Positions 15,901-46,789 of a stretch of 64,000 bases of DNA are shown here, in pieces. A model generated the notes under the pieces. It was given only the letters and a program-made list of their open reading frames with translations, was not told the origin of the DNA and did not search any database. Source of the stretch: Nemertoderma westbladi. Its lineage: Eukaryota > Animalia > Xenacoelomorpha. Positions within the stretch are counted from its first letter, which is position 1. Every line of letters begins with the position of its first letter. The stretch spans positions 164,836 through 228,835 of the forward strand of contig JAUCBJ010009163.1 in the NCBI GenBank assembly GCA_032718475.1. The letters are read 5' to 3'. The position numbers were made by a program, and so were the translations under genes.

Positions 15901-18900
15901 ATATTGTTGTGTTCTAGAATATTTATTATAGTTTCATCGTATTGCTAAAGTGGCTGGAGCTAAAGTTATTATGTAATGCAATAATTCACCTCAAATATCA
16001 CAGCTATTTCATGAACATAATGAAGTATTAAAGCCATGTCAAAATACTTGGTGTTTTTCTGTAATAATTTATCAAAATATCCTCATATTTTTTTTTAAAA
16101 ACCATTTCGATTTTCTTATTTATATCTTCTAACCCACTCCACGAGATAGAGAATCTTAAATGAAAGTCAAAAGAACAGGTAACACTTACATTTATAGAAG
16201 TAATCAGCTGTTATTTGCTACGTCTTTCCGCTGGAGATGGATGAATTTTGATTGTGTCAGAACACCCCCTATCTGCGGCTTTCAGAGTGGAGAGATAAGT
16301 ATCCTATCTCCCTATTAATATTGTTGTGTTCTAGAATATTTTTTATAGTTTCATCGTATTGCCAAAGTTACTAGAGCTGAAGTTAACTCATAATACAATA
16401 ATTCACCTCAAATATCTCAGCTATTTCATGAACATAATGAAGTATTAAAGCCATGTCAAAATCCTTGGTATTTTTCTGCAATAATTTATCAAAATATCCT
16501 CTGATTCTTTACTATAACCATATCGATTTTCATATTTATAACTTCTAACCCACTCCACGAGATAGCGAATCTTAAATGAAAGTCAAAAGAACAGGTAACA
16601 CTTACATTAATAGAAGTAATCAGCTGTTATTTGCTACATCTTTCTGCCAGAGATGGATGAATTTTGATTGTGTCAGAACACCCCCTATCTGTGGTTGTAT
16701 GAGTGGAGAGATAAGTAGCCTATCTCCCTATTAATATTGTTGTGTTCTAGAATATTTATTATAGTTTCATCGTATTGCCAAAGTGACTGGAGCTGAAGTT
16801 AACTTATAATGCAATAATTCACCTCAAATATCTCAGCTATTTCATGAACATAATGAAGTATTAAAGCCATGTCAAAATCCTTGGTGTTTTTCTGCAATAA
16901 TTTATCAAAATATCCTCTGATTCTTTACTATAACCATATCGATTTTAATATTTATAACTTTTAACCCACTCCACGAGATAGATAATCTTAAATGAAAATC
17001 AAAAGAACAGGTAAAACTTACATTTATAGATGTAATCAGTTGTTATTTGCTACGTCTTTCCGCTGGAGATGGATGAATTTTGATTGTGTCAGAACACCCC
17101 CTATCTGTGGCTTTGTGAGTGGAGATATAAGTAGCCTATCTCCCTATTAATATTGTTGTGTTCTAGAATATTTATTATAGTTTCATCGTATTGCTAAAGT
17201 GGCTGGAGCTAAAGTTATTATGTAATGCAATAATTCACCTCAAATATCACAGCTATTTCATGAACATAATGAAGTATTAAAGCCATATCAAAATACTTGG
17301 TGTTTTTCTGTAATAATTTATCAAAATATCCTCTGATTTTTTTCAAAAACCACATCGATTTTCTTATTTATATCTTCTAACCCACTCCACGAGATAGAGA
17401 ATCTTAAATGAAAGTCAAAAGAACAGGTAACACTTACATTTATAGAAGTAATCAGCTGTTATTTGCTACGTCTTTCCGCTGAAGATGAATGAATTTTGAT
17501 TGTGTCAGAACACCCCCTATCTGTGGCTTTCTGAGTGGAGATATAAGTAGCCTATCTCCCAATTAATATTGTTGTGTTCTAGAATATTTTTTATAGTTTC
17601 ATCGTATTGCCAAAGTGACTAGAGCTGAAGTTAACTCATAATACAATAATTCACCTCAAATATCTCAGCTATTTCATGAACATAATGAAGTATTAAAGCC
17701 ATGTCAAAATCATTGGTGTTTTTCTGCAATAATTTATCAAAACATCCTCTGATTTTTTTCAAAAACCACATCGATTTTCTTATTTATATCTTCTAACCCA
17801 CTCCACGAGATAGAGAATCTTAAATGAAAGTCAAAAGAACAGGTAACACTTACATTTATAGAAGTAATCAGCTGTTATTTGCTACGTCTTTCCGCTGAAA
17901 ATGAATGAATTATTTCATATTTATAACTTCTATCCCACTCCACGAGATAGAGAATCTTAAATGAACGTCAAAAGAACAGGTAACACTTACATTTATAGCA
18001 GTAATCAGCTGTTATTTGCTACGTCTTTCCGCTGGAGATGGATGAATTTTGATTGCATTGGAACACCCCCTATCTGTGGCTGTATGAGTGGAGAGATAAG
18101 TAGCCTATCTCCCTGTTAATATTGTTGTGTTCTAGAATATTTATTATAGTTTCATCGTATTGCTAAAGTGACTAGAGCTGAAGTTAACTCATAATACAAT
18201 AATTCACCTCAAATATCTCAGCTATTTCATGAACATAATGAAGTATTAAAGCCATGTCAAAATCCTTGGTGTTTTTCTGCAATAATTTATCAAAATATCC
18301 TCTGTTTTTTTACAAAAAGCATATCGATTTTCATATTTATAACTTCTAACCCACTCCAAGAGATAGAGAATCTTAAATGAAAGTCACAAGAACAGGTAAC
18401 ACTTACATTTATAGCAGTAATAAGCTGTTATATGCTACGTCTTTCCGCTGGAGATGGATGAATTTTGATTGTGTCAGAACACCGCCTTATCTGTGGCTGT
18501 CTAGAGTGGAGAGATAAGTATCCTATTTCCGTGTTAATATTGTTGTGTTCTAGAATATTTATTATAGTTTCATCGTATTGCTAAAGTGGCTGGAGCTAAA
18601 GTTATTATGTAATGCAATAATTCACCTCAAATATCACAGCTATTTCATGAACATAATGAAGTATTAAAGCCATGTCAAAATACTTGGTGTTTTTCTGTAA
18701 TAATTTATCAAAATATCCTCATATTTTTTTTAAAAACCATTTCGATTTTCTTATTTATATCTTCTAACCCACTCCACGAGATAGAGAATCTTAAATGAAA
18801 GTCAAAAGAACAGGTAACACTTACATTAATAGAAGTAATCAGCTGTTATTTGCTACATCTTTCTGCCAGAGATGGATGAATTTTGATTGTGTCAGAACAC

Positions 18901-19132
18901 CCTCTATCTGTGGTTGTAGGAGTGGAGAGATAAGTAGCCTATCTCCCTATTAATATTGTTGTGTTCTAGAATATTTATTATAGTTTCATCGTATTGCTAA
19001 AGTGACTGGAGCTGAAGTTAACTTATAATACAATAATTCACCTCAAATATCTCAGCTATTTCATGAACATAATGAAGTATTAAAGCCATGTCAAAATCCT
19101 TGGTGTTTTTCTGCAATAATTTATCAAAATAT
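6970..19132. repeat. ~415-bp tandem satellite array, block 2, with multi-kb internal duplications
   Basis: Same monomer. Diagnostic variants recur about 4.7 kb apart, e.g. the insertion TTTAAAAGTAAAGTAAAAAAAAAAGAC at ~10470 and ~15190. Confidence 0.98.
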
Positions 19133-19604
19133 GTGAGGTTTGATCAAGAAATCGACCTACCGTTGCAAAATATTATTTCACATAATTAGAGGTTGAAGTC
19201 AAAATAGTTCATTTGGTATTAAAATATCGAATTTTATTTTTTGACTTTTTCTAGATCAGAATTTTTTGCTAATTCTGAAACTGTAAACGAAATTTTCATA
19301 TCTATTTTAGTTTTGGAGTTATTTGATTTTTTGTAGACCTCACTCATTTTGAAATTATTATAAATAAGTGGCCAAATATTTGTAAGATTCAGTAACAGTA
19401 TTACTCAAAATACTATAATTGTATTTGTCCTACAGAATAATTTTTGCTATGAGTTTTCCTGTTCAGTGATTTAATTTCAATTGTTACTTTCCACGGCTGA
19501 CGGATCATAGACTGTCGATCAGTCTGTTTGTCTGTCTGTCTGTGTGTCCGTTTGTCTGTCAAAAATTAAGGAAACATGATATCTAACAAAATGTTTTGCT
19601 TTGG
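19133..19604. mobile_element. AT-rich fragment of a probable non-autonomous element with a (GTCT)n microsatellite, lying where the BEL 5' LTR is expected
   Basis: Abrupt exit from the satellite at 19132. The (GTCT/GTCC)n tract at ~19521-19560 resembles those at ~51770 and ~51900. There is no similarity to the 3' LTR. Confidence 0.5.
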
Positions 19605-22600
19605 GGGTTTTCTCGGAAGGCGATTCCATTTCCAACGAGTCGACACACGACGGCGGTCGACATGCCAGTGTCGCCGGCCAGCCACAGGCCGAGGGCGACG
19701 GACGGCCCACTGGAACGGCGACGGTGGGGCCGCCGGCACGACGCCGGACCCAGAGAGATGTAGGAGATGTCGGCAATGAGGACGTCGGGGTCCGCGATCG
19801 ACTTCAACGGGCCTACAACGCCACCCGGAAATCACTTAAGGAGGCCAAGGAGGGGGCCCAGATAGACGAGGTAAACCTAAATAAAAAACTAGGTGAGTCG
19901 AACGAACATTTTGACTATCTAAAACGTTTTGGGCAGGGAGAACTAGCCAGCGAGAGAGCGAGAGGGGTTGCCACCGAACTGTTCGAACTATGGGAATGCA
20001 GGGGTATGGAACCTAGCGTAGTGTACATAGGGCCATACTTAGTCGATGCCCGGGGAATAAAATTAGTGGGTTGGAGGAAACCGCAGGAGGGCGAATCCGA
20101 GGTTAACCCCGAGGATTCAGTCTCATCGGTCGGAAAAGGTTCCGAAAAAAGGGGGGGGGGGGGTTAGTAGGACGGGAAGGCGGAGGGAATCCGTCGCAAC
20201 CGATAAGTCTGCTACATCCTCCGTAAAAGAAAGACGGGTGAGAGAAATAAATGCGGCGTGTTATCTCGATCTAATAGCGCAAGACCAGAGAGAAGTAGAG
20301 AGACAGTTAGAGGAGGGGAGAGTGCTATTAGAGAAAGAAATGGAACTGGCTAGAGAGACCGGAGAGAGGGCCGAGAAAGCCGCAAGAAGCTTTAGGGAGT
20401 GTGAGGAAATAGGGAGGAAGGAACGAGAAGAGCGCGAGGCGAGAGAGGAGTGTGAACGCAAAGAGCGCGAGGCTGAACGAAAGGAGCGCGAGGCAGAACT
20501 TAAAGAGCGTGAGGTGGCAAGGGAAGCGAAACGAATGGAGAGAGTTGAGAGAGCGAGGGATTTGGCCGAGCAGAGCGCGCGGGAGAGTCGGGAGAGAGCA
20601 GCGGAGGGGAAGCGTGTGCGGGATGGTTTACATGCCCGCCTAGGGGGGCTCATTCAATACCAAACCAAACAAAAGCGCAGACTAAAAATGGCCCAGCTGG
20701 GGCTATCAGAAAGTGACGCTGGCTCGAGCATTTTCGAGGAGCCAAGGGTCGAAGAAACATTTATTAATACCCCACTTACAGGGACCGCACGACAGACCCG
20801 AGACTGGTGTAACCGTACGGGCGGGGGGGGGGGGGGGGTAATAATAATAATACAGTAGATAACGTTGATATTAATAGTACCGTACTAGATAATTCTAATC
20901 AAACTTTCATTGCAGGAAATAATATTTTGCCCGACAGTAGTAATTTAAATCCTAGTGATTCTAATATTAATGTAGGAAATAATTCAAATAATTTAAATCT
21001 AGGTCCGAATTTACAAAATAATCCAAATAATTTAAATATAAATCTGAATTTACAAAATAATTCAAATAATCTTATTTCGAACGAGCAAAATAATTCCGTT
21101 TCTAATTTGGGCGCACAAGGTAACTTAATCGAGTTAGAGGATTTAATTGATCTAACCGATGACAATATTAGTGGTGCTATTAACGTGAACGTGTCGGATG
21201 TGTATAACCCGGCAGACGAGGGCCTGGTAGGCCTACAGCTAGTAGGCAGAAAGTTGCGGGGTTGAGCCAACCCGAAGAGGGCCTGGTAGGCCACTTAGTT
21301 AGTGGGCTGGAAGTGGCGGGGTTGAGCCAACCCGGAGAGGGCCTGGTAGGCCACGTAGTTAGTAGGCAGGGAGTGGCTGGGTTGGGTAAACCCAGCGAGG
21401 GCCTGGTAGGCCACGTAGTTAGTAGGCAGAAAGTAGAGGGCCTGGTAGGCCACACAATAGCAGAGGGAGAGGCGGGGGTGAATAGACCCAGCCGCAGTAG
21501 GGTTGACGTGTCGGCTAGAGAGGGATATAGTAGCGGGGTGAGAGATAGTGAAGTTAGATGTGGCGAGTGGGGGGGGGGGGGGGGGGGGCTACAGGAGCCC
21601 CACAACAGCGAGTTAGCGGCGAAAGGGGGGGGGGGGCAGAGAGTGCCCCACAGGCGTCGACGGATAATGCGCGGGCCGAGACAGGTAAACCGCAACACCC
21701 GGCGACGGAGAGTGATAGGGGGATTGCGAGTATCCCCAGCGGCGTGCAATCGAGCAGAGAGAGACAGGTTGACGTCGCGAGAGGGCGGACGAAGCGTCGA
21801 GCCCGATCAGAAGAGGGAAGAAGAACAGTGGAGTTTAACCGGGAGGTCGACGAGAGATCTCACGAGCGGGAATACTGCACTACAGAGAGAAGAAGGGAAG
21901 AGAGTAGAAGAAGTGTCGCCGCGAACGACAGGAGAGCGAGGACGGATAGCGAGCCGTCGGTAGTAGAGGTGGAGACGGAGAGTCAGCAGGGTCGAACTTC
22001 GGGAGATTGCCGTCGCCCCGGAGGAGCGCGACCTGACGAGGCGTATTGCGCGCAGAGAGAGGGGTACGGGATGTACCGGCACGAGAGCGAGAGCAGTAGA
22101 GGGGGTCGAAGAGAAGCTTCCCGACGGGATATACCTACCGATCGAGAATGCGGTGGCCGCGGGGAGGATTATTCGAGAAGGATAAACTTCGATCCCGAGC
22201 GACACATACAGACTGCAGGACATACTGTAGGCCTTACTGCACATACCATAGGCTATGCTGAGAGAGATAATATAGGCGATAGGATAGCGCGAACAGCGGG
22301 ATTAAACCCGGAAGTCGCGGAGTATATACCGGCAAGGAGGCCAGAAGTAGATAGGCCTATACCGGTACCAGCACAGCAGTATGACTACAGCATGCAAGGA
22401 CATAACATATACCCAGGGGAAGGGGGGATTATTGCGGATAGATGCATGGGCTCCAATATATTAACATCAACCCCAGTACCAAATATACCAGTGGGGGGGG
22501 GGGGGGGGGGACAGGGTGACATTCCCCCATCACAATATCAACAATATACCCCAGTAGGAGTAAGAACATCGAACCCCTTGGACGAGAATAGATCATGCGA

Positions 22601-23008
22601 CACAGAAATATGGAGGGGGCCGCTACCCCCTATGATATATCCAAGTCAGAGGAAAGCGGCAAACAGGACGAACGGACCGCACCCAACGGGAGAACCTATG
22701 CAGCACCCATCGAACCCATTGGAAGCGCAAGCGGTGGGGATGGCCACGTTAATCGATGCACTAAAAACAAGGATCGAGTTACCACCCGTGGAACCATTCA
22801 AATTCGATGGGAGTAGGCCGGAAGAATACCTACAGTTTCGGCGCATGTATAGTAACGAAATATTAACGAAAAATTTGACGCAGGCGGAGTGCCTAAAGTA
22901 TCTGCAAGTATATACAGGGGGCCCAGCATACGACATCGTGAGGCAATACCAGGGTATCGAGGGTGGCTTCACGACGGCATGGCGGGCGTTAGACAGGGAA
23001 TACGGCAC
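19601..23008 (+). pseudogene. gag: BEL/Pao Gag N-terminal part, about 1100 codons broken by frameshifts
   Basis: ORFs 19601, 20238, 20927, 21262 and 21558 join end to end across poly-G runs (~20151-20163, ~20823-20838, ~21568-21588) and a 1-nt deletion near 21235. The last piece has the BEL Gag core ELPPVEPFKFDGSRPEEYLQF...YLQVYTGGPA...AWRALDREYG. Confidence 0.8.
21218..21452 (+). repeat. 60-bp tandem repeat (20 codons) inside gag, two short hairpins per unit
   Basis: GGCCT-GGT-AGGCC occurs at 21221, 21280, 21340, 21400 and 21439. GGGTTG-AGC-CAACCC or a variant lies between the first four. Confidence 0.9.
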
Positions 23009-26000
23009 CCGGCCAAGATCATCCGGCAGACCCTGAGAGGTATAACATCGGGTGGCCTACAGGATAACCCCGTTAGCATAAAGACATTCGCTAACAAAGT
23101 CGAGAAGGCGCTAATCGTGCTAAAGACATTGGATGCGCCATACGAACTCAACGCGTCCAACAACATCACAACGATAGCCCAGGCACTTCCGATGTGGCTG
23201 CGCAATAAGTGGAGGAAAATCGCTTTCTCCACTCGAGATAGGAAGGGTGCGGAACCGGGTTTAGAAGAGATGTCAAGCTTCTTAAACTATGAAGCTGAAC
23301 TTATAACGGACCCAGTCTACAGCGAGGATAGCCTGGGAAAGGGATCAAAGACCGATTACCACAGGCCGAAACCAGAACATAACACATCAAACGCATTACC
23401 AAAGCTCAGGCAATCACTGCCATACGCAGCGACGCAGGGGACTGCAAGTCCACAGGTAGCCGAGGGTAAGACGACATCATGGAGCGGACAGGGGAAAAAT
23501 AACAACACAAATAAACATACCCCCAGTACGCCCAGTAGGCAGAATTCAAACAATAAGAACAGTAAGGACTTTGGTACAAATGCATCTGCGATACGCAATG
23601 CACTGTATAAGGATGGCTACGATCCAAAGAGCAAATGCCAGCTACATTCAAATGCGCTTCATCAGACCATGAACTGCAGGTACTGGCAGGCGCTACCCAG
23701 GGAAGATCAGGTAGAATACGCGGCGAGAAATGACATCTGCTCGCGATGCGTGATGAGTGGACACAGAGCTAGACAATGCAGAGAAACGCCAATTAAGTTC
23801 GGCCAGAGTAAAGGACAAACAATGGCAACAAGCACCGTAGTAGCAAAGAAGAGAGGGACGGTACTATTAGGGGTAGTACCAGTAAGGATAATCGGCGAAG
23901 GCAACCGATCAGTAACCACACTGATGCTGGTCGACAGTGGTGCAGCCTTCACCTTAGTTGAGGATTGGGTGGCCGAAGAGATAGGATTGAGAACGAGGCC
24001 AAGTAGAATGGCGGTAACAACCATCTCCAGCAAAGATGAGGTTCTGGAGATGAGAACCGGACGGTGCGCGATAGCAGCGGTAGCACCGGGATGCGATTAT
24101 GGGGCGACCATCGACCCCATCCAGGTGATAGAGTCGATAAATATTAACGCCAGGCGGCCAACCAACATCGAGGTCGAACAATACAGATTCCTGGACAGTA
24201 TCGACTTCTCAATCCCAGAGGTGGACGTTAGGAAGGTATCCATCATAGTAGGAATGGACTGCCCAACGGCCCACGAGAGAATGCAAACGGTCTTCGGCGA
24301 AGACAGGCAGTGTGACCCGGTGGCGATATTGACACCATTCGGGTGGACACTGAGTGGCCCAATCAAGAGTAAGATACCATTTAGGATGTCGGAGACATCA
24401 GGATGCATGTTCGCGGGAACTATGCGAGAGATGGAGGATGAGGGAGCAGAGGAGCAGCTCAGGAGACTGCTCAGGCAGGATTTTGAGGGATTAAAGGAGA
24501 CCGGGGTCGGAACCTCGGTAGAAGACAAGCAGGCTTTACAAAGTGTAAAGGAATCGATGACATGCGATGAGGGGCGGTATACCATAGGGATGGTATGGAA
24601 GCTACCAAAGCTACCGTTACCCGACAACAAAGGGATGGTACTTACGAGGCTTCGCAAGTTAAAGCAGACGTTAAAACGGAGCCCCGAGAAGAATGAGTAC
24701 ATCCACAAGACAATTAGAAAGTATGTCGAGAAAGGATGGGCCGTGGAGTTACCGGTCGACGAGCCAAACACGGACAGGACCTATTACCTGCCACTCCACG
24801 TGGCTATAGACCCGAAGAAAGGTAAACTGCGGATGGTAGTTGACGCATCAGCCAAGACCAACGGGAAATGCCTAAACGATTATCTGCTGGAGGGTCCCAA
24901 CATCTACAACTCAGGGATCGAGGTCCTACTCAGATTCAGGAATGGCAAACACGCTTTCACCTGCGACATCGAAGGCATGTTCAACCAAGTCCGTGTAACG
25001 GAAGAGGATAGCGACAGCCAACGCTTCCTATGGTACGACGGCGATGAGGAACCGTCGACCATACCAATGTATAAGATGGTAGTACAGAATATGGGAGCCA
25101 AGTCGTCTTCGTTTACAATGACTATGGCCGTAAGAGATACGGTAGCAGGGAAGGAAGATAAGTTCAGCGCCAAAGCCGTCGATATGATTCGACGCGGCTT
25201 CTACGTAGACGACGGGATGGAGTCTGGAAATACGGTTAAGGAGCTACTGGACACAGGGCGCGAGGTTCGCGACATCCTTAAAGGATCCGGCTTCAACCTA
25301 ACCAAATTCCAATCCAGTTCGAAGGAATTTATCGAGGCAATAAAAGACGAGAGACCAGGATCGACCATGGATAATCCCACAACAGCCAAGGGGCAGGACA
25401 TGGCGAACAAGAGGATAGAGTCTCAACAGAAGGCACTGGGAATCGTGTGGAACAGAGAGACAGACGAGTTAAAATACCAATTGAGTCAGGAGGGAGCAGG
25501 TATCCACACAAAGAGGGGCTATGTGTCATATATAGCGAGGATATACGATCCCCTAGGCCTAGCATCCCCATTACTAGTCACGGGGAAACAGATACTCAAG
25601 AGAGTATACAAATTAAAGGACGAGTGGGACGCAGAGGTCCCAGAAGAGATTAGTAAGCAGTGGAACAAGTGGACAGAGAGTTTAGAGCAGATGGGAACAT
25701 ACAGCATGCCGCGTGTATATTTCCCGGATGGGGACATGACGAATCTGGATCTACATATGTTCTCCGATGCGTCATTAGAGGCATATGGAGCGGCACTCTA
25801 CTTAGTACAACGAGAGGGGGCTCACAAGCCCAGACTCGCATTCAGTAAAGCGAAGTCGACGCCACCAGACTCAGCATCAGTTCCGAAACTCGAGTTGACA
25901 GCTGCGAGATTAGGAGTTAGGGCCACAGCCTACTTAGTGGACGCTATTCCCAACATAGTGGAAACACATTACTGGACGGATTCCATGGTAGTGCTCGGTT

Positions 26001-27880
26001 GGCTACACAACGAAAGGACGAGATACCCTATATTCGTCGCGAATAGAGTGGACGAAATAAGGGCGACCACAGAACTGGAAAGGTGGCACTACTGCCCAAC
26101 GGACGAGAACCCAGCGGACTTGTTATCGAGGGGCGTGGTACGCCACACTTTCTTGAAGAAGGAAGTATTGTGGCAACACGGGCCACAGTTTCTGAGCGAT
26201 AGGGAGGCCTGGCCGCCGATGAGAAAGGTGGACCCGGGCTCAGGAGAAGTAGTGTCAGAAGGAGAAGAGGGAGATTCAGAGGGAGAGGAGATATACTCCC
26301 AGATGGTGAGGGAGATAAGGGACGTGCAACCAAAACCAGGAGAACTGTGCGATAACCCGACGGATAAACTCCTTAGCTACAGTTCTAGTTGGTACAAGAC
26401 CAAGAAGTTAGTGGCATACTGGAGAGCCTTCGGGAATTTCCTCAGGGGAGTTGGTAAAGACGTGAAGATTAGAACGACAATAGACCTGGAAGGAGCGGCC
26501 AAAGCAGTCATCCGCTACGAGCAGAGGAAGAACTACGGCGACGAGGTGGAACGCGTCGGTAAGCAACAGCATCTCCGGCGGGACAGCGAGCTGATCACGC
26601 TGTCACCACAACTTAATGACGACGGGATCCTAGTAATGAACTCTAGGGTGGGATACAACAACAGTATCGTCGTACCACCGAAGCCCATCATCATTCCCAC
26701 AGGATCGCCGATAGTCCACCAGATTATCTGGGACTCCCACAAATCGATATTGCACGGGGGCACCAACCGAACCCTCACGGAGATAAGAAGGACCTTTTGG
26801 GTCAAACAGCTGAGGAAGAAGGTAAAGGCGGTAGTGGGGCAGTGCCAGAGCTGCCGACGAGCGAAGAAGGAATGGGCCATACAGGAGATGGCGCCACTAC
26901 CGGCCAGTAGAGTAAGACAGCACGACCCGCCATTTACGCATTGCGGTGTGGATATGTTCGGGCCGATAAAGATTAAGGTGATGCGACACACGGAGAAACG
27001 CTACGGTATCATCTTCGTATGCAACAACACGCGGGCGGTAGGAATAGAACTCGCCCAAGATGCAACCGCATCAGCATTCATCAATGCTTTAGAAAGATTT
27101 AGAGACCGCAAAGGTGGGACAATCGCAGTGCTGTATTCTGACAGCGGGACCAACTTTGTGGGGGCGGAGAACGAGATGGCAGAGGCCTTGGATATCCTGG
27201 AAGGGGAGGAAGTCAGGGCGGCCATGAGAAGGCGACAAGTAAAGTGGGAGAGGAGGACGCCGTATGCTCCGCATACGCTAGGATGCGTCGAGAGATTAGT
27301 GGGTAGTTCGAAACGTCTGATGACGAAGCTGATGAACACCCACATGGTTACAGAAGACGTACTAAGGACAGTACTGGCAAAGTGTGAGGGTATCATTAAT
27401 AGCAGACCGCTATATCCAGAGAATGATGACCCTGAGTCATTAGACGTGCTGACGCCCAGTCACTTTCTAATGGAGAGGCCGGCGACAATCGACATGCGGG
27501 GTGTAGACCCAGACGACATACACTCCCGCCAGAGTTGGAAAGTCGCTATGGCAATAAGCGCAGAGTACTGGAGGAGGTGGGTCGAGGAATATCTGCCCAC
27601 ACTACACAGAAGAAGTAAGTGGAGGAACACGAACAGAGAGCTAAAGGAGGGTGATCTCGTGATCGTCACGGATGATACTATCATCAACAACCAATGGCGG
27701 TTGGCGAGAGTTGTGGGCACTTACTCCGATGAGGACGGAAGAGTCCGATCGGTAGAAGTGCGAATAGGTGGAAAGATCACATCAAGGTGCAAAAGACAGA
27801 AAGACCTACAGGAGGGCTGTAGGAAAATGCTGTCTACTAGAGGGGGCACCTTGATCTTGTGTGATTTTAGTGGAGTTTAG
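23008..27880 (+). CDS. pol: BEL/Pao Gag C-terminus plus Pol polyprotein (zinc knuckle, aspartic protease, RT, RNase H, integrase)
   Basis: ORF 22889-27880 has the knuckle CSRCVMSGHRARQC, protease LVDSGA, RT YYLPLH/RMVVDAS/DIEGMFNQV/FYVDDG, RNase H FSDAS/PKLEL/WTDS/NPADLLSRG, and integrase H..H..CQSC, GVDMFGP, SDSGTNF, VERLV. The BEL-like tail KTYRRAVGKCCLLEGAP* is in another frame ending at 27854, implying a frameshift near 27790. Confidence 0.96.
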
Positions 27881-27956
27881 TCGTCCAAGTTTTGGTCTGA
27901 GGGGGGTGGGATTGAGGGCGAGATGCCCTTCCCACACAATAAAATTAAAATAAAAA

Positions 27957-28420
27957 GTTAGTTAGTAAGAAGGTACGTAGTACCGTCAGTAGGCAGAAGT
28001 TAGTTAGTAAGAAGGTACGTAGTACCGTCAGTAGGCAGAAGTTAGTTAGTAAGAAGGTACATAGTACCGTTAGTTAGTTGGAGAGAGTTAGAGTTTAGTA
28101 AGAGGGTACATTGTACCGTTAGTTAGTTGGAGAGAGTTAGAGCTTAGTAAGAGGGTACATAGTACCGTTAGTTAGTCGGAGAGAGTTAGAGTTTAGTAAG
28201 AGGGTACATAGTACCGTTAGTTAGTTAATAGAGTTAGAGGTTAGTAAGAGGGTACATAGTACCGTTAGTTAGTTAGTAGAGTTAGAGGTTAGTAAGAGGG
28301 GACATAGTACCGTTAGTTAGTTAGTGGAGTTAGAGGTTAGTAAGAGGGTACGCAGTACCAATTAGTTAGTTAGTTAGAGAGAGTTAGAAGTTAGTAAGAG
28401 GGTACGTAGTACCGGTTAGT
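27957..28420 (+). repeat. Array of 10 GGTAC-NNN-GTACC hairpin units (period 42-54 nt) between pol and the extra ORF
   Basis: Stems start at 27972, 28014, 28056, 28105, 28154, 28203, 28251, 28299 (1 mismatch), 28347 and 28401. The linkers are (GTTA)n- and GAGA-rich. Confidence 0.93.
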
Positions 28421-28889
28421 AAGAGTAAGAGGTATAGGGATATATATATAGTACAGATATTAGTTAGTAGTTAGTAGCGAGAGGGGGGCATATGAGTACA
28501 GCTGGATAAATCGTGTAGGCCGCGCAACGCATACTGTTGTACTGCACAAGCCCACAGAGAAGGCCAGAATGTGGATTATGAAATAGAATAATCCATAGGC
28601 AATAGTTTAAAATATTAGAATTAAAATAAGAATAGGGCTGAAAAATTAACAAATTACAGTAACAATAGAAAAGAAAATTCTAGAACATAATAAAAGTAAC
28701 TGACAAAATTCGCAGTTTAGGTACAATTTGGTAGGTACAGAAATAAAGCCGTGTAAATAGGCTAATTAACTTAGTAATTCAGAGGGAGATAGGCCATCGA
28801 ACTGAGATAAACCACCTTAACCTATCACTCATCTTACTGCGCCTTGGTAAGGCACCACCCAGCGGGTGAGCAATCGGGTAAAGTTCGAG

Positions 28890-31346
28890 ATGGCAAGCAA
28901 ACTTGTGCGAAAGAGAAAGGCGGAGCTAGGAGGAAAGGAGATATTGGTGGATTTCACCAAGAGACATCCGGAAGAGATAACGAGGGGATACTACGAACGG
29001 TTAGAGAGGGGTCATGCAGCGCGAGCGCTACAGGACCACTTCAGGGAGGTGCATGAACAGCGGCTGGTTGGGACCTATGGGACGCCATCGCTGGACAACG
29101 CGATCTTCGAGCACTTCCACTACGTGGTAAAAGGAGACGAAGCGAAGTTCGGGATTCCGAAGTATGCAAGGGATCCACCGAGGAAGGATTGGAAGAGATT
29201 CGTAGAGTCCGTCGGCAGAGAAGGATATATGGTCATGGATGATGGGGGGACTGTGGAAGACGAGGAGGGTTCGAGGAGAGGATCGGCGGCATCGGCCAGA
29301 ACCATACTCCTACATTTGGTCGCGCCAAATGGGGACATATTCCTATTCGATCTAGGAACGTATGGAAAGAAGGATGGACCGAAGTTAAACCGGCTACCAA
29401 AGGCGGTGCAAGCACTAGTGAGAGAGAAGTCAACGACAAAAGTGGGATCGGCGATTCGCGACGACGCGGAGAGAATCATCGGTCCGGACACCCCCAACCT
29501 TCTGGATACGCAGACGGTCTACATGGCTATGACAGCACCGGATGGGTTGGGACTAATAGAGAACACAGGACATTGCGGGGCAGTGGCGATGGGCCAGTTA
29601 ATGGGGCTCGTGTGTCACAAACCGATGGACTGGGGCAAGTTCAGAGAGGAGTACGGAGCAGACTTGGCGAGCTCGTTAAAGTGGGGAGCAAGGCCAGGGA
29701 GACAATATGTGTATCAATTCCGGAGAGGAGCTATAAAGGTATATCAGAGGCGATATATCCTACAGGAGGACTGGATAATGATAGGTTTGCCTAACCTATT
29801 CATGACCGTGATTATCGAGAGAGAACCAACGGCATTCCTATTATCGAGATCACCCCTAAGCTACAGAACGTTTAAGACGGCTTTTGAGGGTCTGGTAGAC
29901 CACCCGGGGCTGAAGGGCGAGTCGGTGTACTACAACAGCCGACATCTGGTAGACGTGGAGGTGGATACGCCGTGTCAGAGATGGGAGCAGCTAGAGACGG
30001 ATAGACGAGAGGCGAAGCGACTGGAAGAAGTCGCCAGATGGGAGAGGATAGAAGCAGAAGAAAGGGAGGAGGAAGCTAGGGCACAGAGCTACGGCTTCGA
30101 GGAACAGGCGGGCTTGGATGAACTTCGTTGGACTTCATCAGGGAGTTCGGGGGAGTCTCTAGGGCGAGAACTGGGATGGACGGTGGGGTCACCGAAACAG
30201 TCGACGTCGGGATTGCAGGCGACGCCCATACCAGCGGGCGCCGAGGGCGACCAGCCGCTAAGGAGGCTAGGGGAGCTAGAGGGATGGAGAGCTACGGGCG
30301 AGAGCCAAGGCGGGAAGGGACATAGTGGGTACACCGGGATACCGGGGTTGAAGCCACTCCCAGAGGAGGACGAAGACGACGACGAGTTCGGAGAGATGCC
30401 GCCCATCGGGAGGATCGGCCACTCAGACACAGACTGGGTTGGCGGGAGGGTGGTGATGGCCAGTGGGACAAGGGCTTTCTGGAATAGACCCGGCAAGCGG
30501 GCCTGGGTGCACGACGAGCCGGTGATGGATTTCGCGGGGAGCACCATTAGGTTGGGCGAGCAACCGGGGACGGCACCACGGGTAGTATTCGGGGAGACGA
30601 TGCCCGAGAGGGGCGAAGAGGTCGACGTAGATAGGGACGCTAACGTCCGGAAGTTCGCTTACCAGCGACTCCACAGACCACGGAGATCGCTTGGGACGAA
30701 AGACGACGTGGGGCGGGAGACATTGGTACTCGGCTGTGACTACTGTGGGAAACAGACCCATCAGGAAAGGAGCTGTTTGTACCGGTTCCAGAAAGGGACT
30801 TATTGTCTCTATTGCCGCGAGTCGAGCCACAGGATGGGGGCGTTTCCACGGTTGCATAACCGATGTTCGAAGTGTAACTTTCGGGGACATTACGGATGCC
30901 AGTGCGACTGGATGGACGACGAAGAGAAGTTTAGGGTCTTCGAAGAATGGGCCGACGTCGGGGCGATGACTCGGCAACGTATGAAGGCCCAGGAGCTCCG
31001 GTGGGACTTCTTTAACATCAATCAGGAGGCTCACATGGAGATTATCAAACGGAGGCTTCCATTTACCTACCAGGAAGTGGCGATGGCGGCATCATATGCC
31101 GGAGTGATAAATACGCAGAGGTATTTGGACAGGTGGACGCCACAGAGTAGAGGAGAGTTTAGGGATTTCTTGGCGGAGCATGTGCCGCGGGCAATGAAGA
31201 TGATCCTATGGGATGCCATCAGGGGGAGACAACAGGGCCACTCGGAAGGGCCACCCGCGAAGCGATACCGGGAGCTAATAACACCGGCACCCAAGGAGTC
31301 GACGACCGGGATCAGTAAGGAGGTGGCGGCGAGGGTCCGAAGATAG
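28890..31346 (+). CDS. Retrotransposon accessory ORF3 (~818 aa): DnaQ/DEDDy-like 3'-5' exonuclease domain, charged linker, three CCHC zinc knuckles
   Basis: Uninterrupted 2.46-kb ORF with first ATG at 28890 (GAGATGG). WRN/EXD/Mut-7-like pattern: YMVMDDGG...ILLHLVAPNGDIFLFDL...LPKAVQALVREKSTTKVGSAIRDDAERI...NLLDTQTVY...YQRRYILQED. Knuckles: CDYCGKQTHQERSC, CLYCRESSHRMGAF (last C to F) and CSKCNFRGHYGCQC. Confidence 0.8.
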   Translation: MASKLVRKRKAELGGKEILVDFTKRHPEEITRGYYERLERGHAARALQDHFREVHEQRLVGTYGTPSLDNAIFEHFHYVVKGDEAKFGIPKYARDPPRKDWKRFVESVGREGYMVMDDGGTVEDEEGSRRGSAASARTILLHLVAPNGDIFLFDLGTYGKKDGPKLNRLPKAVQALVREKSTTKVGSAIRDDAERIIGPDTPNLLDTQTVYMAMTAPDGLGLIENTGHCGAVAMGQLMGLVCHKPMDWGKFREEYGADLASSLKWGARPGRQYVYQFRRGAIKVYQRRYILQEDWIMIGLPNLFMTVIIEREPTAFLLSRSPLSYRTFKTAFEGLVDHPGLKGESVYYNSRHLVDVEVDTPCQRWEQLETDRREAKRLEEVARWERIEAEEREEEARAQSYGFEEQAGLDELRWTSSGSSGESLGRELGWTVGSPKQSTSGLQATPIPAGAEGDQPLRRLGELEGWRATGESQGGKGHSGYTGIPGLKPLPEEDEDDDEFGEMPPIGRIGHSDTDWVGGRVVMASGTRAFWNRPGKRAWVHDEPVMDFAGSTIRLGEQPGTAPRVVFGETMPERGEEVDVDRDANVRKFAYQRLHRPRRSLGTKDDVGRETLVLGCDYCGKQTHQERSCLYRFQKGTYCLYCRESSHRMGAFPRLHNRCSKCNFRGHYGCQCDWMDDEEKFRVFEEWADVGAMTRQRMKAQELRWDFFNINQEAHMEIIKRRLPFTYQEVAMAASYAGVINTQRYLDRWTPQSRGEFRDFLAEHVPRAMKMILWDAIRGRQQGHSEGPPAKRYRELITPAPKESTTGISKEVAARVRR

Positions 31347-32041: not shown

Positions 32042-32079
32042 ATGCTATCTTCTTACCGGGAAGATAGCATGGGGGGGAG
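32042..32079 (+). promoter_or_regulatory. Polypurine tract GGGGGGGAG (32071-32079) preceded by a perfect 11-bp hairpin
   Basis: ATGCTATCTTC (32042-32052) pairs with GAAGATAGCAT (32060-32070). GGGGGGGAG follows and abuts TGTT, the usual BEL PPT-LTR junction form. Confidence 0.75.
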
Positions 32080-32653
32080 TGTTAGCGGATTCAATTCCGC
32101 TAACCAGCCCCATAAAGTGAGCTTTAACCAATATTGGGAACACGAGGTTGATACCCAATATCAACCTCGTACCACCCCAATAAAGTGGGGACAAGGAAAC
32201 CCCAGAGGACGTACGCACAAAGGGGTCAAGGGTTACACCCCTGAGAGAGAGAGAGAGAATAACAGGGGCAATGGGAAACACACCAGGGAAGGTGAAAGGG
32301 CGACAACGAGGGTATTAGCCATTAGGGGGGAAGCATCAACTGGGTAGAGCAATATGGCCAACTGTGCAATATATATTACCGGTCCATGCAATATTCATTC
32401 ACTTGTAGTAAGTCAGCTAGTTAGGACAGTAGCGGAACTCTAGTTACCGTCTCCGCCTACTGTCATCAGTACAATCACATACCGGTACATTACAGCTTTA
32501 TGCTTTATCTCTATTATATCATATATCCCGAGCTTATATATATATCGACCGATCAACAACCTATAACTCTTTACATCTTTCACACGCGGTGGGGACGCGT
32601 AGACTAGAAACCAAAACCCGGATAAACCGGGATCTTCCGCAGATCCCATGACA
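32080..32653 (+). repeat. 3' LTR of the BEL/Pao element (574 bp)
   Basis: Starts TGTTAGCGGAT right after the PPT and ends ATCCCATGACA (imperfect inverted termini, 8/11). The satellite resumes at 32654. A TATA-like tract lies at ~32535. No second LTR is in the window to confirm it. Confidence 0.75.
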
Positions 32654-35600
32654 ATAGAAGTAATCAGATGTTATTTGCTACATCTTTCTGCCAGAGATGG
32701 ATGAATTTTGATTGTGTCAGAACACCCCTTATCTGTGGTTGTATGAGTGGAGAGATAAGTAGCCTATCTCGCTATTAATATTGTTGTTATATTTATTATA
32801 GTTTCATCGTATTGCTAAAGTGGCTGGAGCTAAAGTTATTATGTAATGCAATAATTCACATCAAATATCTCAGCTATTTCATGAACATAATGAAGTATTA
32901 AAGCCATGTCAAAATCCTTCGTGTTTTTCTGCAATAATTGATCAAAATATCCTGTAATTTTTTACAAAAACCATGTCGATTTTCATATTTATAACTTCTA
33001 TCCCACTCCACGAGATAGAGAATCTTAAATGAAAGTCAAAAGAACAGGTAACACTTATATTTATAGAAGTAATCAGCTGTTATTTGCTATGTCTTTCCGC
33101 TGAAGATGAATGAATTTTGATTGTGTCAGAACACCCCCTATCTATGGTTGTATGAGTGGAGAGATAAGTATCCTATCTCCCTATTAATATTGTTGTGTTC
33201 TAGAATATTTTTTATAGTTTCATCGTATTGCCAAAGTGAATGGAGCTGAAGTTAACTCATAATACAATAATTCACCTCAAATATCTCAGCTATTTCATGA
33301 ACATAATGAAGTATTAAAGCCATGTTAAAATCATTGGTGTTTTTCTGCAATAATTTATCTAAATATCCTCTGATTTTTTTCAAAAACTTTATCGATTTTC
33401 ATATTTATAACTTCTATCCCACTCCACGAGATAGAGAATCTTAAATGAACGTCAAAAGAACAGGTAACACTTACATTTATAGAAGTAATCAGCTATTATT
33501 TGCTACGTCTTTCCGCTGGAGATGTATGAATTTTGACTGTGCCAGAACACCCCCTATCTGTGGTTGTATGAGTGGAGAGATAAGTAGCCTATCTCCCTAT
33601 TATTATTGTTGTATTCTAGAATATTTATTATTGTTTCATCGTATTGCTAAAGTGGCTGGAGCTAAAGTTATTATGTAATGCAATAATTCACCTCAAATAT
33701 CTCAGCTATTTCATGAACATAATGAAGTATTAAAGCCATGTCAAAATCCATGGTGTTTTTCTGCAATAATTTATCAAAATATCCTCTGATTCTTTACTAT
33801 AACCATATCGATTTTCATATTTATAACTTCTATCCCACTCCACGAGATAGAGAATCTTAAATGAAAGTCAAAAGAACAGGTAACACTTATATTTATAGAA
33901 GTAATCAGCTGTTATATGCTACGTCTTTCCGCTTGAGATGGATGAATTTTGATTGTGTCAGAACACCCCCTATCTGTGGCTGTCTGAGTGGAGAGATAAG
34001 TATCCTGTTTCCGTGTTAATATTGTTGTGTTCTAGAATATTTATAACAGTTTCATCGTATTGCCAAAGTGACTGGAGCTGAAGTTAACTTATGCAATAAT
34101 TCACCTCAAATATCTCAGCTATTTTATGAACATAATGAAGTATTAAATCCATGTCAAAATCCTTGGTATTTTTCTGCAATAATTTATCAAAATATCCTCT
34201 GATTTTTTTCAAAAACCATATCGATTTTCATATTTATAACTTCTATCCCACTCCACGAGATAGAGAATCTTAAATGAAAGTCAAAAGAACAGATAACACT
34301 TACATTTATAGAAGTAATCAGCTGTTATTTGCTACGTCTTTCCGCTTGAGATGGATGAATTTTGATTGCGTCAGAACACCCCCTATCTGTGGCTGTCTGA
34401 GTTGAGAGATAAGTAGCCTATCTCCCTATTAATATTGTTGTGTTCTAGAATATTTATTATAGTTTCATCGTATTGCTAAAGTGGCAGGAGCTAAAGTTAT
34501 TATGTAATGCAATAATTCACCTCCAATATCTCAGCTATTTCATGAACATAATGAAGTATTAAAGCCATGTCAAAATCCTTGGTATTTTTCTGCAATAATT
34601 TATCAAAATATCCTCTGATTCTTTACTATAACCATATCGATTTTAATATTTATAACTTCTAACCCACTCCACGAGATAGAGAATCTTAAATGAAAGTCAA
34701 AAGAACAGGTAACACTTACATTTATAGAAGTAATCAGCTGTTATTTGCTACGTCTTTCCGCTTGAGATGGATGAATTTTGATTGTGTCAGAACACCCCCT
34801 ATCTGTGGCTGTCTGAGTTGAGAGATAAGTAGCCTATCTCCCTATTAATATTGTTGTGTTCTAGAATATTTATTATAGTTTCATCGTATTGCTAAAGTGG
34901 CAGGAGCTAAAGTTATTATGTAATGCAATAATTCACCTCCAATATCTCAGCTATTTCATGAACATAATGAAGTATTAAAGCCATGTCAAAATCCTTGTTG
35001 TTTTTCTGCAATAATTTATCTAAATATCTTCTAATTTTTTACAAAAACCATAATATAGATTTTCATATTTATAACTTCTATCCCACTCCATGAGATAGAG
35101 AATCTTAAATGAAAGTCAAAAGAACAGGTAACACTTACATTTATAGAAGTAATCAGCTGTTATTTGCTACGTCTTTCCGCTGGAGATAAATGAATTTTGA
35201 TTTCATTGGAACACCCCCTATCTGTGGCTTTATGAGTGGAGAGATAAGTAGCTTATCTCCCTATTAATATTGTTGTGTTCTAGAATATTTATTATTGTTT
35301 CATCGTATTGCCAAAGTGACTGGAGCTGAAGTTAACTTATAATACTATAATTCACCTCAAATATCTCGGCTATTTCATGAACATAATGAAGTATTAAAGC
35401 CATGTCAAAATCCTTGGTGTTTTTCTGCAATAATTTATCAAAATATCCTCTGATTTTTTACAAAAACCATATCGATTTTCATATTTATAACTTCTATCCC
35501 ACTCCACGAGATAGATAATCTTAAATGAACGTCAAAAGAACAGGTAACACTTACATTTAAGGCAGTAATCACCTGTTATTTGCTACGTCTTTCTGCTGGA

Positions 35601-37848
35601 GATAAATGAATTTTGATTGCATTGGAAAACCCCCCTATCTGTGGCTTTATGAGTGGAGAGATAAGTATCCTATCTCCCTATTAATATTGTTGTGTTCTTC
35701 AGTAGAATATTTATTATAGTTTCATCGTATTGCCAAAGTGACTGGAGCTGAAGTTAACTTATAATACTATAATTCACCTCAAATATCTCAGCTATTTCAT
35801 GAACATAATGAAGTATTAAAGCCATGTCAAAATCCTTGGTATTTTTCTGCAATAATTTATCAAAATATCCTCTGATTTTTTTCAAAAACCATATCGATTT
35901 TCATATTTATAACTTCTATCCCACTCCACGAGATAGAGAATCTTAAATGAACGTCAAAAGAACAGGTAACACTTACATTTATAGAAGTAATCAGCTGTTA
36001 TTTGCTACGTCTTTCCGCTGGAGATGGATGAATTTTGATTGTGTCAGAACACCCCCTATCTGTGGCTTTCTGAGTGGAGAGATAAGTAGCCTATCTCCCT
36101 ATTAATATTGTTGTGTTCTAGAATATTTTTTATAGTTTCATCGTATTGCCAAAGTGACTGGAGCTGAAGTTAACTCATAATACAATAATTCACCTCAAAT
36201 ATCTCAGCTATTTCATGAACATAATGAAGTATTAAAGCCATGTCAAAATCCTTGGTATTTTTCTGCAATAATTTATCAAAATATCCTCTGATTCTTTACT
36301 ATAACCATATCGATTTTAATATTTATAACTTCTAACCCACTCCACGAGATAGAGAATCTTAAATGAAAGTCAAAAGAACAGGTAACACTTACATTTATAG
36401 AAGTAATCAGCTGTTATTTGCTACGTCTTTCCGCTTGAGATGGATGAATTTTGATTGTGTCAGAACACCCCCTATCTGTGGCTGTCTGAGTTGAGAGATA
36501 AGTAGCCTATCTCCCTATTAATATTGTTGTGTTCTAGAATATTTATTATAGTTTCATCGTATTGCTAAAGTGGCAGGAGCTAAAGTTATTATGTAATGCA
36601 ATAATTCACCTCCAATATCTCAGCTATTTCATGAACATAATGAAGTATTAAAGCCATGTCAAAATCCTTGTTGTTTTTCTGCAATAATTTATCTAAATAT
36701 CTTCTAATTTTTTACAAAAACCATAATATAGATTTTCATATTTATAACTTCTATCCCACTCCATGAGATAGAGAATCTTAAATGAAAGTCAAAAGAACAG
36801 GTAACACTTACATTTATAGAAGTAATCAGCTGTTATTTGCTACGTCTTTCCGCTGGAGATAAATGAATTTTGATTTCATTGGAACACCCCCTATCTGTGG
36901 CTTTATGAGTGGAGAGATAAGTATCCTATCTCCCTATTAATATTGTTGTGTTCTTCAGTAGAATATTTATTATAGTTTCATCGTATTGCCAAAGTGACTG
37001 GAGCTGAAGTTAACTCATAATACAATAATTCACCTCAAATATCTCAGCTATTTCAGGAACATAATGAAGTATTAAAGCCATGTCAAAATCCTTGGTGTTT
37101 TTCTGCAATAATTTATCAAAATATCCTCTGATTTTTTACAAAAACCATATCGATTTTCATATTTATAACTTCTATCCCACTCCACGAGATAGATAATCTT
37201 AAATGAACGTCAAAAGAACAGGTAACACTTACATTTATAGCAGTAATCACCTGTTATTTGCTACGTCTTTCTGCTGGAGATAAATGAATTTTGATTGCAT
37301 TGGAAAACCCCCCTATCTGTGGCTTTATGAGTGGAGAGATAAGTATCCTATCTCCCTATTAATATTGTTGTGTTCTTCAGTAGAATATTTATTATAGTTT
37401 CATCGTATTGCCAAAGTGACTGGAGCTGAAGTTAACTCATAATACAATAATTCACCTCAAATATCTCAGCTATTTCATGAACATAATGAAGTATTAAAGC
37501 CATGTCAAAATCCTTGGTATTTTTCTGCAATAATTTATCAAAATATCCTCTGATTTTTTTCAAAAACCATATCGATTTTCATATTTATAACTTCTATCCC
37601 ACTCCACGAGATAGAGAATCTTAAATGAACGTCAAAAGAACAGGTAACACTTACATTTATAGAAGTAATCAGCTGTTATTTGCTACGTCTTTCCGCTGGA
37701 GATGGATGAATTTTGATTGTGTCAGAACACCCCCTATCTGTGGCTTTCTGAGTGGAGAGATAAGTAGCCTATCTCCCTATTAATATTGTTGTGTTCTAGA
37801 ATATTTTTTATAGTTTCATCGTATTGCCAAAGTGACTGGAGCTGAAGT
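32654..37848. repeat. ~415-bp tandem satellite array, block 3 (about 12.5 monomers)
   Basis: Same monomer and orientation as blocks 1-2. It ends abruptly at GCTGAAGT|ATCTTT (37848). Confidence 0.98.
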
Positions 37849-37940
37849 ATCTTTATTCCTATGGTGTAGACTGAATATCTATTTGAATTTCCCACCACCA
37901 CTACACTAACCTCTCCAACAACATACATATTTGTAATAGT

Positions 37941-38750
37941 TTAATAACGATTTGGTGGGTTTGAAACTCTACCAGAGTGGGTAATGGGTGGTTGTTTCGT
38001 AACAGCTTCGGCGTGAGTCAGTTTCTTGTGCACTGTTGTTGAAGATTTACGTGGTTTTCCATGATATGGTGGTTGGGCTAATAGAACTGGCTTGTCAGTA
38101 TCTATGTGAGCAGGTTTTAACCGATCAATAGAGATGGTTTCTTCTCTATTTCCCATTCTGATTTTAAACATTTTTGGGCCAGTTACTAGGACCTTGTAGG
38201 GTCCTGTGTATGTTCTCTGCAAGGGTTTGCAATGTCTATCAACGCAAAGAAATACATAATGTGAGTTAGTCAGGCTGGAGGGCACATTAACTTTTGGGAG
38301 TCCATGTGCTGTAGATGGAACAGAATTAAGTGTTTAAACTTTATCTCATAATATTTTGAGGAAATCGTAGTTGTTTGGTTTAGCGCCATTATCAATAGCA
38401 GGAAGAAAATCTCCAGGGACCTGCCATACACTAGTTCAGCACAACTCACGCCGAGGTCTTCTTTGAATGGAGTGCAAAGACCAAGTAGTACGCCAGGTAT
38501 ATTGGCCACGCTTTGAATTGGTGGTGCCAGCGATCTAGAATCCCATTAGCATCTGGATGATATGCAGTGGTGTTATGTACTGTAATACCTAATTGCTCAG
38601 AGATGCCTCGCCACAGTTTCGATATAAATTGTCATTCCCGATCAGTTGGTACGCCAAATCTAGAAATCCATGTGGAGATAAGCGCTGATACACATGATGT
38701 TGTGGATGTATCAGCCAACAGAACTGCTTCCAGCCATATTGTATCCACCA
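37941..38750 (-). pseudogene. Decayed Ty3/Gypsy integrase fragment
   Basis: Three frames give WLEAV..DTSTTSCVSALISTWISRFGVP, PGVLLGLCTPFKEDLGVSCAELVYG and KPLQRTYTGPYKVL...ETISIDRLKPAH, typical of a Gypsy integrase core and C-terminus. Confidence 0.85.
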
Positions 38751-45900: not shown

Positions 45901-46644
45901 AAATGACCTCAAATATAATATCTTGGAAATTTGATTAATTTCAAGTTTGCGTAATTTTTTGATGAAAGATATATATACCTCCTCCCAAATATTCATCTTA
46001 ATAACAGAGATTCCATTAATAATATCATCTATATTTGATATCCTTTTGTCAGTTAATTGTGCGGCGGTGGTTCTCAACTTAGCAAATAATTTTCCAAAGC
46101 AAATCTGCAAAGGAACATAAAACAAAATCACAAGTACCGCAATCCATCCAGCTAAACCCAGCATGTATACAAGAAGACAAGCTATAATTAGATTTACTAA
46201 AGGAGAAACTAACAAATAACCAAATATGCGAGACATTGATTCTAAACGACCCAAATCATTTGATACCAAATTTGTTATATAACCCACACTCGTATTCTCA
46301 AGGTCTATAATTGATAATGAAAGTATTTTATCATATATCAATGAACAACATGCTGTTTGTATCTCAGTAAGTAGAAGTGTATTAAGCAATTTTGAATTGT
46401 TATTAGCTAATAAATATATCATATCTAGAAAAGCAATTAAGCAGGTATACAAATATGCATTTGGGGTCGAAATGGTACTATCTGGCATAAAGTACTTCAA
46501 TATCTCACATAGAAGTAACGCCTTTATGGTCATGCAACAATAACCCAGTAACATAATACTCGAGCTCTTTATGTAACAAAGCCAGTAGGTTCGAACAATA
46601 ACACGTAGTAGAGATGTAGCATTGGGTTTCGTGTGAGACACTTC
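42968..46644 (-). CDS. ABCC4/MRP4-like ABC transporter, large exon 2 (TMD1-NBD1-TMD2-NBD2), with a 1-nt frameshift near 45237
   Basis: NBD1: GQVGSGKT, YVPQSPW, LSGGQKA, IYILDDPFS. NBD2: GRTGAGKT, NFSTGQQQLLCLGRA, LMDEATA, IIAHR. TMD2: FFDFTPIGQILNRFSKD. The splice acceptor TTTTTACAG|GAAGTG is at 46645/46644. Adding one base restores GQKARINLCRALY. Confidence 0.92.
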
Positions 46645-46789
46645 CTGTAAAAATCAAACATATTTTAAGTTAGATTTCGTATAAGAATACGAAATCAAAT
46701 ATAAGAATAATATTAGAATTACATTATTTATATACATACAGCACAATATATATTCAATATTTTTATATACTCTATATCACTTACTAGTT

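Follow-up and report, generated by a model that had tools for sequence, protein, structure and literature searches.

We put at about even chances the reading that ORF3 of the BEL/Pao retrotransposon described below is a conserved accessory gene of a BEL/Pao group, which is predicted to encode a DEDDy 3'-5' exonuclease with three zinc knuckles and which would act in cis on the element's RNA or on its reverse transcription intermediates. ORF3 lies in the window, i.e. the whole 64,000-nucleotide stretch of Nemertoderma westbladi DNA that was analysed. Comparison of related elements by trees and substitution ratios shows that ORF3 and pol are co-inherited, that this association is old and that ORF3 stands under purifying selection. 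The relatives of ORF3 exist in three states, with the catalytic motif intact, as a constrained pseudo-nuclease lineage and as a knuckle-only form.

ORF3 and the element that carries it

The features of the element and of ORF3 in window coordinates are the following:

19580..23036, + strand: gag, spread over several frames, with breaks at G-runs and near 23000 and a split DUF1759
22856..27880, + strand: Pao-type pol frame with gag end, protease, RT, RNase H (Peptidase_A17), integrase and DUF5641, from Pfam
27881..28889, + strand: non-coding spacer of ~1 kb, with a 49-bp tandem array at 27956-28420 and stops in all frames
28890..31346, + strand: ORF3, 818 aa, with N-terminal helices, DEDDy exonuclease, disordered linker, three CCHC knuckles and helical tail
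29103..29933, + strand: predicted DEDDy (EXD2/WRN/RNase D-like) exonuclease domain, aa ~72-348, from profile and fold
29238 (D117), 29244 (G119), 29463 (D192), 29754 (Y289) and 29766 (E293), + strand: catalytic motif positions, from sequence
30096..30728, + strand: low-complexity linker, aa 403-613, predicted disordered (pLDDT <50), unconserved among homologues
30735..30905, + strand: three C-x2-C-x4-H-x4-C zinc knuckles, from sequence and alignment
30918..31094, + strand: conserved helical tail, F-E-x-x-A-D-x-G-x-x-T ... aromatic pair, of no known family
32071..32079, + strand: polypurine tract, from sequence
32080..32648, + strand: putative 3' LTR, TG...CA, 569 bp, without a 5' partner in the window

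The first-pass annotation had noticed an open frame between the integrase and the polypurine tract and 3' LTR, and this frame is real: its codon coordinates were given correctly, it lies on the same strand as pol, and its 818 codons compare with a longest ORF of 251 codons in 1000 base shuffles. Pol upstream of it is of Pao type by Pfam (Peptidase_A17 at 1e-41, DUF5641, Integrase_H2C2), and Peptidase_A17, DUF5641, DUF1759 and Integrase_H2C2 stand in the order expected for the PR-RT-RH-IN arrangement of BEL/Pao elements (Belpaoviridae). The composition of ORF3, said earlier to be the same as that of pol, is only roughly alike, with G and A fractions of 0.35 and 0.27 in ORF3 versus 0.29 and 0.31 in pol. 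That ORF3 is not an env gene was confirmed by hydropathy; the best 19-residue Kyte-Doolittle mean in the window ORF3 is 1.20, which leaves it without a hydrophobic anchor, and the best hydropathy window stays below 1.9 in 28 of 29 ORF3 ORFs. The signal peptide and transmembrane anchor of an envelope glycoprotein were thus not found in ORF3, and the env reading was rejected for want of a membrane anchor.

The polypurine tract stands directly before the TG...CA segment, as had been proposed for a 3' LTR, but self-BLAST of the window finds no 5' partner for it. Neither paired LTRs nor a primer binding site nor a target-site duplication was found for the window copy, and its satellite flanks are 113 nt out of register. 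The window segment 19133-19600, at the expected site of the 5' LTR, is AT-rich, carries a GTCT microsatellite and is unrelated to the 3' LTR.

For comparison with other copies we used contigs from four runs, X1-X4, belonging to three studies, one of which may be the window's own sample. Thousands of contigs align in X1-X3, the family being multi-copy in the same organism, and they cover all 30 bins from ORF3 to the LTR; one X4 contig diverges from the window sequence at 32647, near the putative end of the 3' LTR. ExoI in the window copy reads D-D-G and knuckle 2 ends in Phe, and damage had been suspected at both codons (GGG at 29244, TTT at 30843). Every aligned contig differs from the window letter at position 29245 (29, 18 and 16 contigs in X1-X3) and at position 30844 (64, 36, 50 and 5 in X1-X4); the ExoI Gly and the knuckle-2 Phe are therefore private to the window copy, as none of the aligned contigs shares either codon change. 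Cys ends knuckle 2 in all 15 aligned homologues, which were picked with the window's own sequence. The best-supported indels within ORF3 sum to three bases, and the 29 window differences listed (585 further rows exist) fall 8, 9 and 12 on codon positions 1, 2 and 3. This near-neutral pattern fits, as expected, the decay of the window copy after insertion. Intact relatives have a single gag-pol ORF of 2100-2400 aa, against a gag broken in several places here, and with no 5' LTR, a broken gag and two odd private residues the window element is a decayed copy. Contigs that join across 28907-30042 (three runs) and across 30217-31191 (two runs) show that deletion derivatives without the exonuclease and without the knuckles, respectively, exist as DNA.

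The element is set within a 416-bp satellite array of ~59 copies (window 1-19132 and 32654-38000), which has an inverted-repeat insert at 6078-6662. Further on, the window holds an ABC transporter gene (42968-46653, - strand) that has no introns, is split over two overlapping frames and may be a frameshifted copy, a retrogene or an assembly slip, and two ORFs, GDSL/SGNH esterase-like (49346-50851, + strand) and AP-endonuclease (55197-56036, + strand), that are probably pieces of non-LTR retrotransposons.

Exonuclease, knuckles and tail

The Pfam check that had been proposed (DNA_pol_A_exo1, zf-CCHC) came back empty: ORF3 and its pieces gave no exonuclease or zf-CCHC match and nothing else of relevance, and DNA_pol_A_exo1 was found in none of the 49 locus ORFs and in one of the 35 homologues. 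Pfam being silent, the domains were assigned from profiles and from the fold. Among 1.84 billion representatives searched there were 35 ORF3 homologues, and 15 of these, long enough for both domains, were aligned. The profile of these 15 matched EXD2 best (E 3e-10), followed by T. brucei RNase D (7c45, 4.9e-8, a match that comes mostly from the knuckles, with a weak stretch in the exonuclease), Egalitarian (1e-5), the knuckles of Lin28 and WRN (1.6e-3). An exonuclease-only profile of 31 sequences reached EXD2 at 7e-12; the EXD2 match covers the N-terminal half of the domain. The AlphaFold model of ORF3, built on 16 sequences, is of moderate quality, with a mean pLDDT of 55 and mostly 70-88 in the nuclease (a single-sequence fold with pLDDT 37 was not used). 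With this model Foldseek returned DEDDy proteins at probability 1.0, Egalitarian being top at 1.5e-5, and VIA-align gave Z scores of 11-12.7 over 165-204 residues (residues ~55-348), namely 11-12.4 to Nibbler, WRN, Egalitarian, EXD1 and the trypanosome enzyme (TbRND) and 12.3-12.7 to WRN and the proofreading domain of apicoplast DNA polymerase. Both programs thus place ORF3 in the RNase H-like DnaQ fold, and the DEDDy/DnaQ assignment of the first-pass annotation is borne out by profile and model alike. Its special tie to Mut-7/Nibbler and EXD1 did not hold up, as EXD2 gives the best profile match and the fold scores lie within 1-2 Z of each other, so that no donor can be named.

The catalytic set of the window copy is D-G-D-Y-E, in which the second acid is missing. 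The spacing of ExoIII, earlier called imperfect, is canonical (Y289-x3-E293); it is the acid alone that is unusual, Glu standing there as it does in four intact homologues. The exonuclease also has a family-specific insertion before ExoIII. HRDC, which follows the exonuclease in Rrp6 and RNase D, had no Pfam match in the 49 locus ORFs, in which Pfam misses the exonuclease too. The three knuckles had been recognised correctly, the pattern C-x2-C-x4-H-x4-C being found at the place given, and the helical tail had no match in a sequence search of the PDB.

A word-index protein search found no match with ORF3 or with alignment A1, and 7 proteins with the knuckle alignment; ORF3 likewise found no match in a single-protein locus scan of metagenomes or among viral contigs and phage records. 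In the ESM Atlas the best match of homologue P0004 (0.86) was an exonuclease+CCHC cluster of Euglenozoa, which we take as a lead only.

Relatives, descent and expression route

Scanning with nothing but the knuckle motif yielded at least 120 loci, 80 of them with flanks, and since the loci were selected on this motif exonuclease-only forms could not appear. An exonuclease is found upstream on the same strand in 62 of the 80 flanked loci listed. A Pao-like integrase lies just upstream in 34 of the 40 listed loci that have at least 1.5 kb before the exonuclease, and LTR pairs with primer-site-like sequence enclose ORF3 in L013 and L023 (in L023 a pair of 797 bp, 95%, with a primer-site-like TGG). 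The exonuclease is present in 42 of the 44 listed integrase-bearing loci. The assemblies behind 41 of the 44 have accession prefixes close to one another, so that a single host group may be concerned; the other three loci are from other collections. All seven pol ORFs tested are Pao by Pfam, and the window pol is only ~34% identical to the pol of related loci. The 58 knuckle domains fall into 52 clusters at 90% and 19 at 50%. Of the six exceptions, two (L005 and L052) share 64% identity with L051; the integrase of L051 is located 3.4 kb upstream, a distance that reaches past the ends of the L005 and L052 contigs. Gag-pol was not seen upstream of L008/L032 (one element), L012 and L075. One locus, L071, was discarded as a chance motif match in a 28-aa ORF. 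In L005, L015, L043 and L051 ORF3 has an extra N-terminal region of 480-900 aa without a Pfam match. L008, L032, L072 and L103 are 98% identical and represent one element. Its ORF3 is shortened and its catalytic residues are altered, the 2 kb upstream hold no gag-pol, and inverted repeats lie tangled downstream; the element is possibly non-autonomous or has another carrier.

Trees of pol and ORF3 were built from 22 elements with all domains; the ORF3 tree was obtained by a quick search, and the window forms a long branch. Of the 14 pol clades with strong support, the ORF3 tree recovers eleven, leaves two unresolved and conflicts weakly with one. A check of dN/dS had been suggested, and between related elements it gave purifying values: 0.05-0.44 for the exonuclease (32 of 38 pairs, three being saturated and three identical) and, for the knuckles together with the tail, 0.02-0.31 in 24 pairs, the pairs not being independent in either set. 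Synonymous divergence in the same pairs is 0.75-1.3 for the exonuclease, lower than for pol (1.7 to saturated). Position after integrase, agreement of the two trees and purifying selection together uphold the view of ORF3 as a genuine gene of the element. That it could rather be a neutral, recently captured fragment of a host gene, or a host gene beside the element, is hardly credible and is largely refuted by the locus survey, dN/dS and tree congruence: introns are absent, the congruence spans pol that is only about one-third identical, and ORF3 sits within the LTR pairs of L013 and L023. The few loci without pol and the near-neutral codon positions would suit such a capture, but the latter describe the decay of the window copy only.

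In a set of 54 homologues, from which 4 near-duplicates and 8 partial rows had been dropped, all four acids are kept in 32 (with Tyr in 28), spread over deep branches, and the catalytic set is incomplete in 22, of which 13 belong to one lineage. As to whether the family has D-x-E and an intact Cys, a question raised by the first-pass annotation, the Cys is present in 15 of 15 homologues and the acids are complete in those 32 but not in the other 22. The pseudo-nuclease lineage is monophyletic in the pol tree (11 rows, support 100/99), and its exonuclease dN/dS is still 0.05-0.33. In three further loci (L047:3341-6529, L059:6880-9648 and L061:2-2425) ORF3 keeps knuckles and tail without a detectable exonuclease; a Pao-like integrase precedes it in L047 and L059. 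With the exonuclease lost or dead in some lineages, the constant part of ORF3, in loci that were selected on knuckles, is the knuckle-tail module.

ORF3 has its own ATG as a separate ORF in most loci. In 11 of 38 listed loci it is also in frame behind a TGA pol stop, open over 378-756 nt, while the other frames carry stops, and nine of these 11 fall among the 16 loci of the pseudo-nuclease lineage (11 assigned by tree, 5 by similarity). All 14 TGA loci of this lineage have a stem of 7-11 bp starting 8-11 nt past the stop; the mean stem is 9.1 bp in these 14 versus 5.5 bp in 26 others, in a stem window chosen after viewing the sequences and among loci that are related. The 14 loci are L002, L007, L021, L031, L033, L034, L037, L039, L062, L065, L066, L068, L069 and L080; within the 66 nt past the pol stop the arms of their stems differ yet remain complementary, and TCGG stands at +19/+20 in 13 of them. 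A UGA stop followed by a stem resembles viral readthrough signals, and the related loci have a UGA-C stop, a short spacer, a 3' stem-loop and an open frame, although RNAalifold found no consensus structure in an automatic alignment of the readthrough region. The arrangement in these 14 loci suggests a programmed readthrough signal leading into a Pol fusion. It is missing in 27 of the 38 loci and in the window element, where the pol stop is TAG, 35 in-frame stops follow and the spacer is closed in all frames; there is consequently no readthrough from pol in the window's element, and its ORF3 needs a start of its own. NLS-like motifs in 27 ORF3 ORFs number 41, twice the shuffled expectation of 20.

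Possible functions and comparison with known systems

In our best reading ORF3 would bind RNA as a cofactor within the RNP or particle of its own element. The knuckle-tail module would grip single-stranded nucleic acid; given an intact active site, the 3' end may be fed to the nuclease, by analogy with trypanosome RNase D, and the nuclease would then trim the ends of element RNA, primer or cDNA. As some lineages keep a catalytically dead domain or knuckles only, the core function would be to bind RNA. In one lineage the protein may enter the particle as a Gag-Pol fusion through UGA readthrough, and in the window element translation would start at the ATG of ORF3 itself and yield a separate protein. 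Most BEL/Pao elements have been described without such a gene (PMC8742986), and hence ORF3 is not needed for replication as such.

The serious competitor, which we nevertheless think rather unlikely, is that ORF3 is a silencing suppressor whose knuckles would capture host piRNAs or siRNAs, with the nuclease trimming them or a dead domain sequestering them or mimicking EXD1 or Nibbler. These two proteins are among the fold relatives, though the best profile match is to EXD2. Retention of a pseudo-nuclease has parallels in EXD1 and Maelstrom (discussed in PMC5408684), and the congruence of the ORF3 and pol trees, with dN/dS near pol values, suggests slow conservation rather than an arms race. 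That most loci have ORF3 as a separate frame starting at an ATG of its own, that NLS-like motifs are in excess and that the family is multi-copy in the window's organism would all suit a suppressor; a fusion to Pol would yield little protein and place it in particles. The 3' ends of mature piRNAs carry 2'-O-methyl, which also speaks against the suppressor reading. The in-frame UGA of the relatives points more to a Pol-linked role in the particle than to one in small-RNA biology, while the excess of NLS-like motifs speaks against a cis-acting particle protein in so far as it fits a nuclear, trans-acting role equally.

It seems improbable to us that ORF3 acts in the manner of Egalitarian, as an adaptor that transports or localises RNA and would bring the RNA of the element to germ cells or into the nucleus, catalysis being incidental. 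Egalitarian is the top Foldseek match and is found by the profile, one listed structure shows it on I-factor RNA, and catalysis has been lost in 22 of 54 homologues; however, many DEDDy proteins tie in fold score, and the catalytic set has been kept across deep branches in the other 32. Slightly less probable still is an exonuclease that proofreads DNA or edits its ends in the service of reverse transcriptase: the matches to WRN and the apicoplast proofreading domain and the suggested Pol fusion in 11 of 38 loci would agree with it, yet the lineage without catalytic acids accounts for nine of the 11 in-frame fusions, the opposite of what it predicts. Leaving open whether the protein processes RNA in cis or counters small RNAs, we tentatively propose, with more doubt than belief, that an old BEL/Pao lineage has its own protein for one of these tasks, invisible to Pfam and existing in active, pseudo-nuclease and knuckle-only forms, and that one sub-lineage uses structured UGA readthrough of pol to package it in particles.

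If this last proposal is true, an animal LTR retrotransposon has an accessory factor that acts directly on RNA 3' ends. What nuclease ORFs do in retroelements has been a standing question since they were reported in rotifers, and the present family offers dozens of divergent natural versions under purifying selection; their three states and two expression modes make cis-processing and silencing suppression directly testable against each other. Position alone is moreover no ground for annotating the third ORF of a BEL/Pao element as env.

The arrangement had been presented as possibly novel, but DEDDy ORF3s are already described in the bdelloid rotifer LTR retrotransposons Juno and Vesta and in Athena/Terminon elements (PMC5408684), and the available parts of PMC6431247, PMC5718144 and PMC6338049 repeat this. 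Juno and Vesta share with our element an RNase D-like DEDDy ORF after pol, in the place of env and without a transmembrane domain (PMC5408684); their report found no clear selection within one genome and contains no assay. The carrier here is instead BEL/Pao, and a triple CCHC knuckle and a helical tail are fused to the nuclease, whereas the text of PMC5408684, as far as available, mentions knuckles for gag and pol alone and CCHC not at all. ExoII is mostly Asp here (40 of 66, Glu in 7 of 66) as against DEED in rotifers, and old co-inheritance with pol contrasts with the recent, repeated acquisition in rotifer elements, a comparison made by description and not by sequence. EXD2, WRN-exo, Nibbler (Mut-7), EXD1 and Egalitarian have the same fold at ~11-15% identity, ORF3 differing by its insertion before ExoIII. 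T. brucei RNase D (TbRND; PDB 7c42-7c4c; PMC7797062) has, like ORF3, a DEDDy domain followed by tandem CCHC knuckles, in line with the profile and fold matches, and according to that paper RNA binding requires the knuckles, which also enhance cleavage. TbRND is there a cellular, mitochondrial gRNA trimmer with four knuckles and a 28-aa linker; ORF3 has three knuckles, a disordered linker of ~200 aa and the extra tail, and the shared architecture is probably convergent. Belpaoviridae with an env-like ORF3 (PMC8742986 and the available text of PMC3118150) have the gag-pol order, polypurine tract, LTR and third ORF after integrase in common with our element, in which the third ORF is predicted to encode a soluble nuclease-knuckle protein. 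The third genes named in the ICTV Belpaoviridae profile (PMC8742986) are env-like only; so are those in the available text of PMC3118150, where 'exonuclease' occurs 0 times and whose supplements may hold such elements unannotated. An exonuclease ORF of a BEL/Pao element was not found in the open-access papers searched. A DEDDy ORF3 in LTR elements is thus already known, and what appears new here, by comparison with those papers, is the BEL/Pao carrier, the fused knuckles and tail, and the old co-inheritance with pol.
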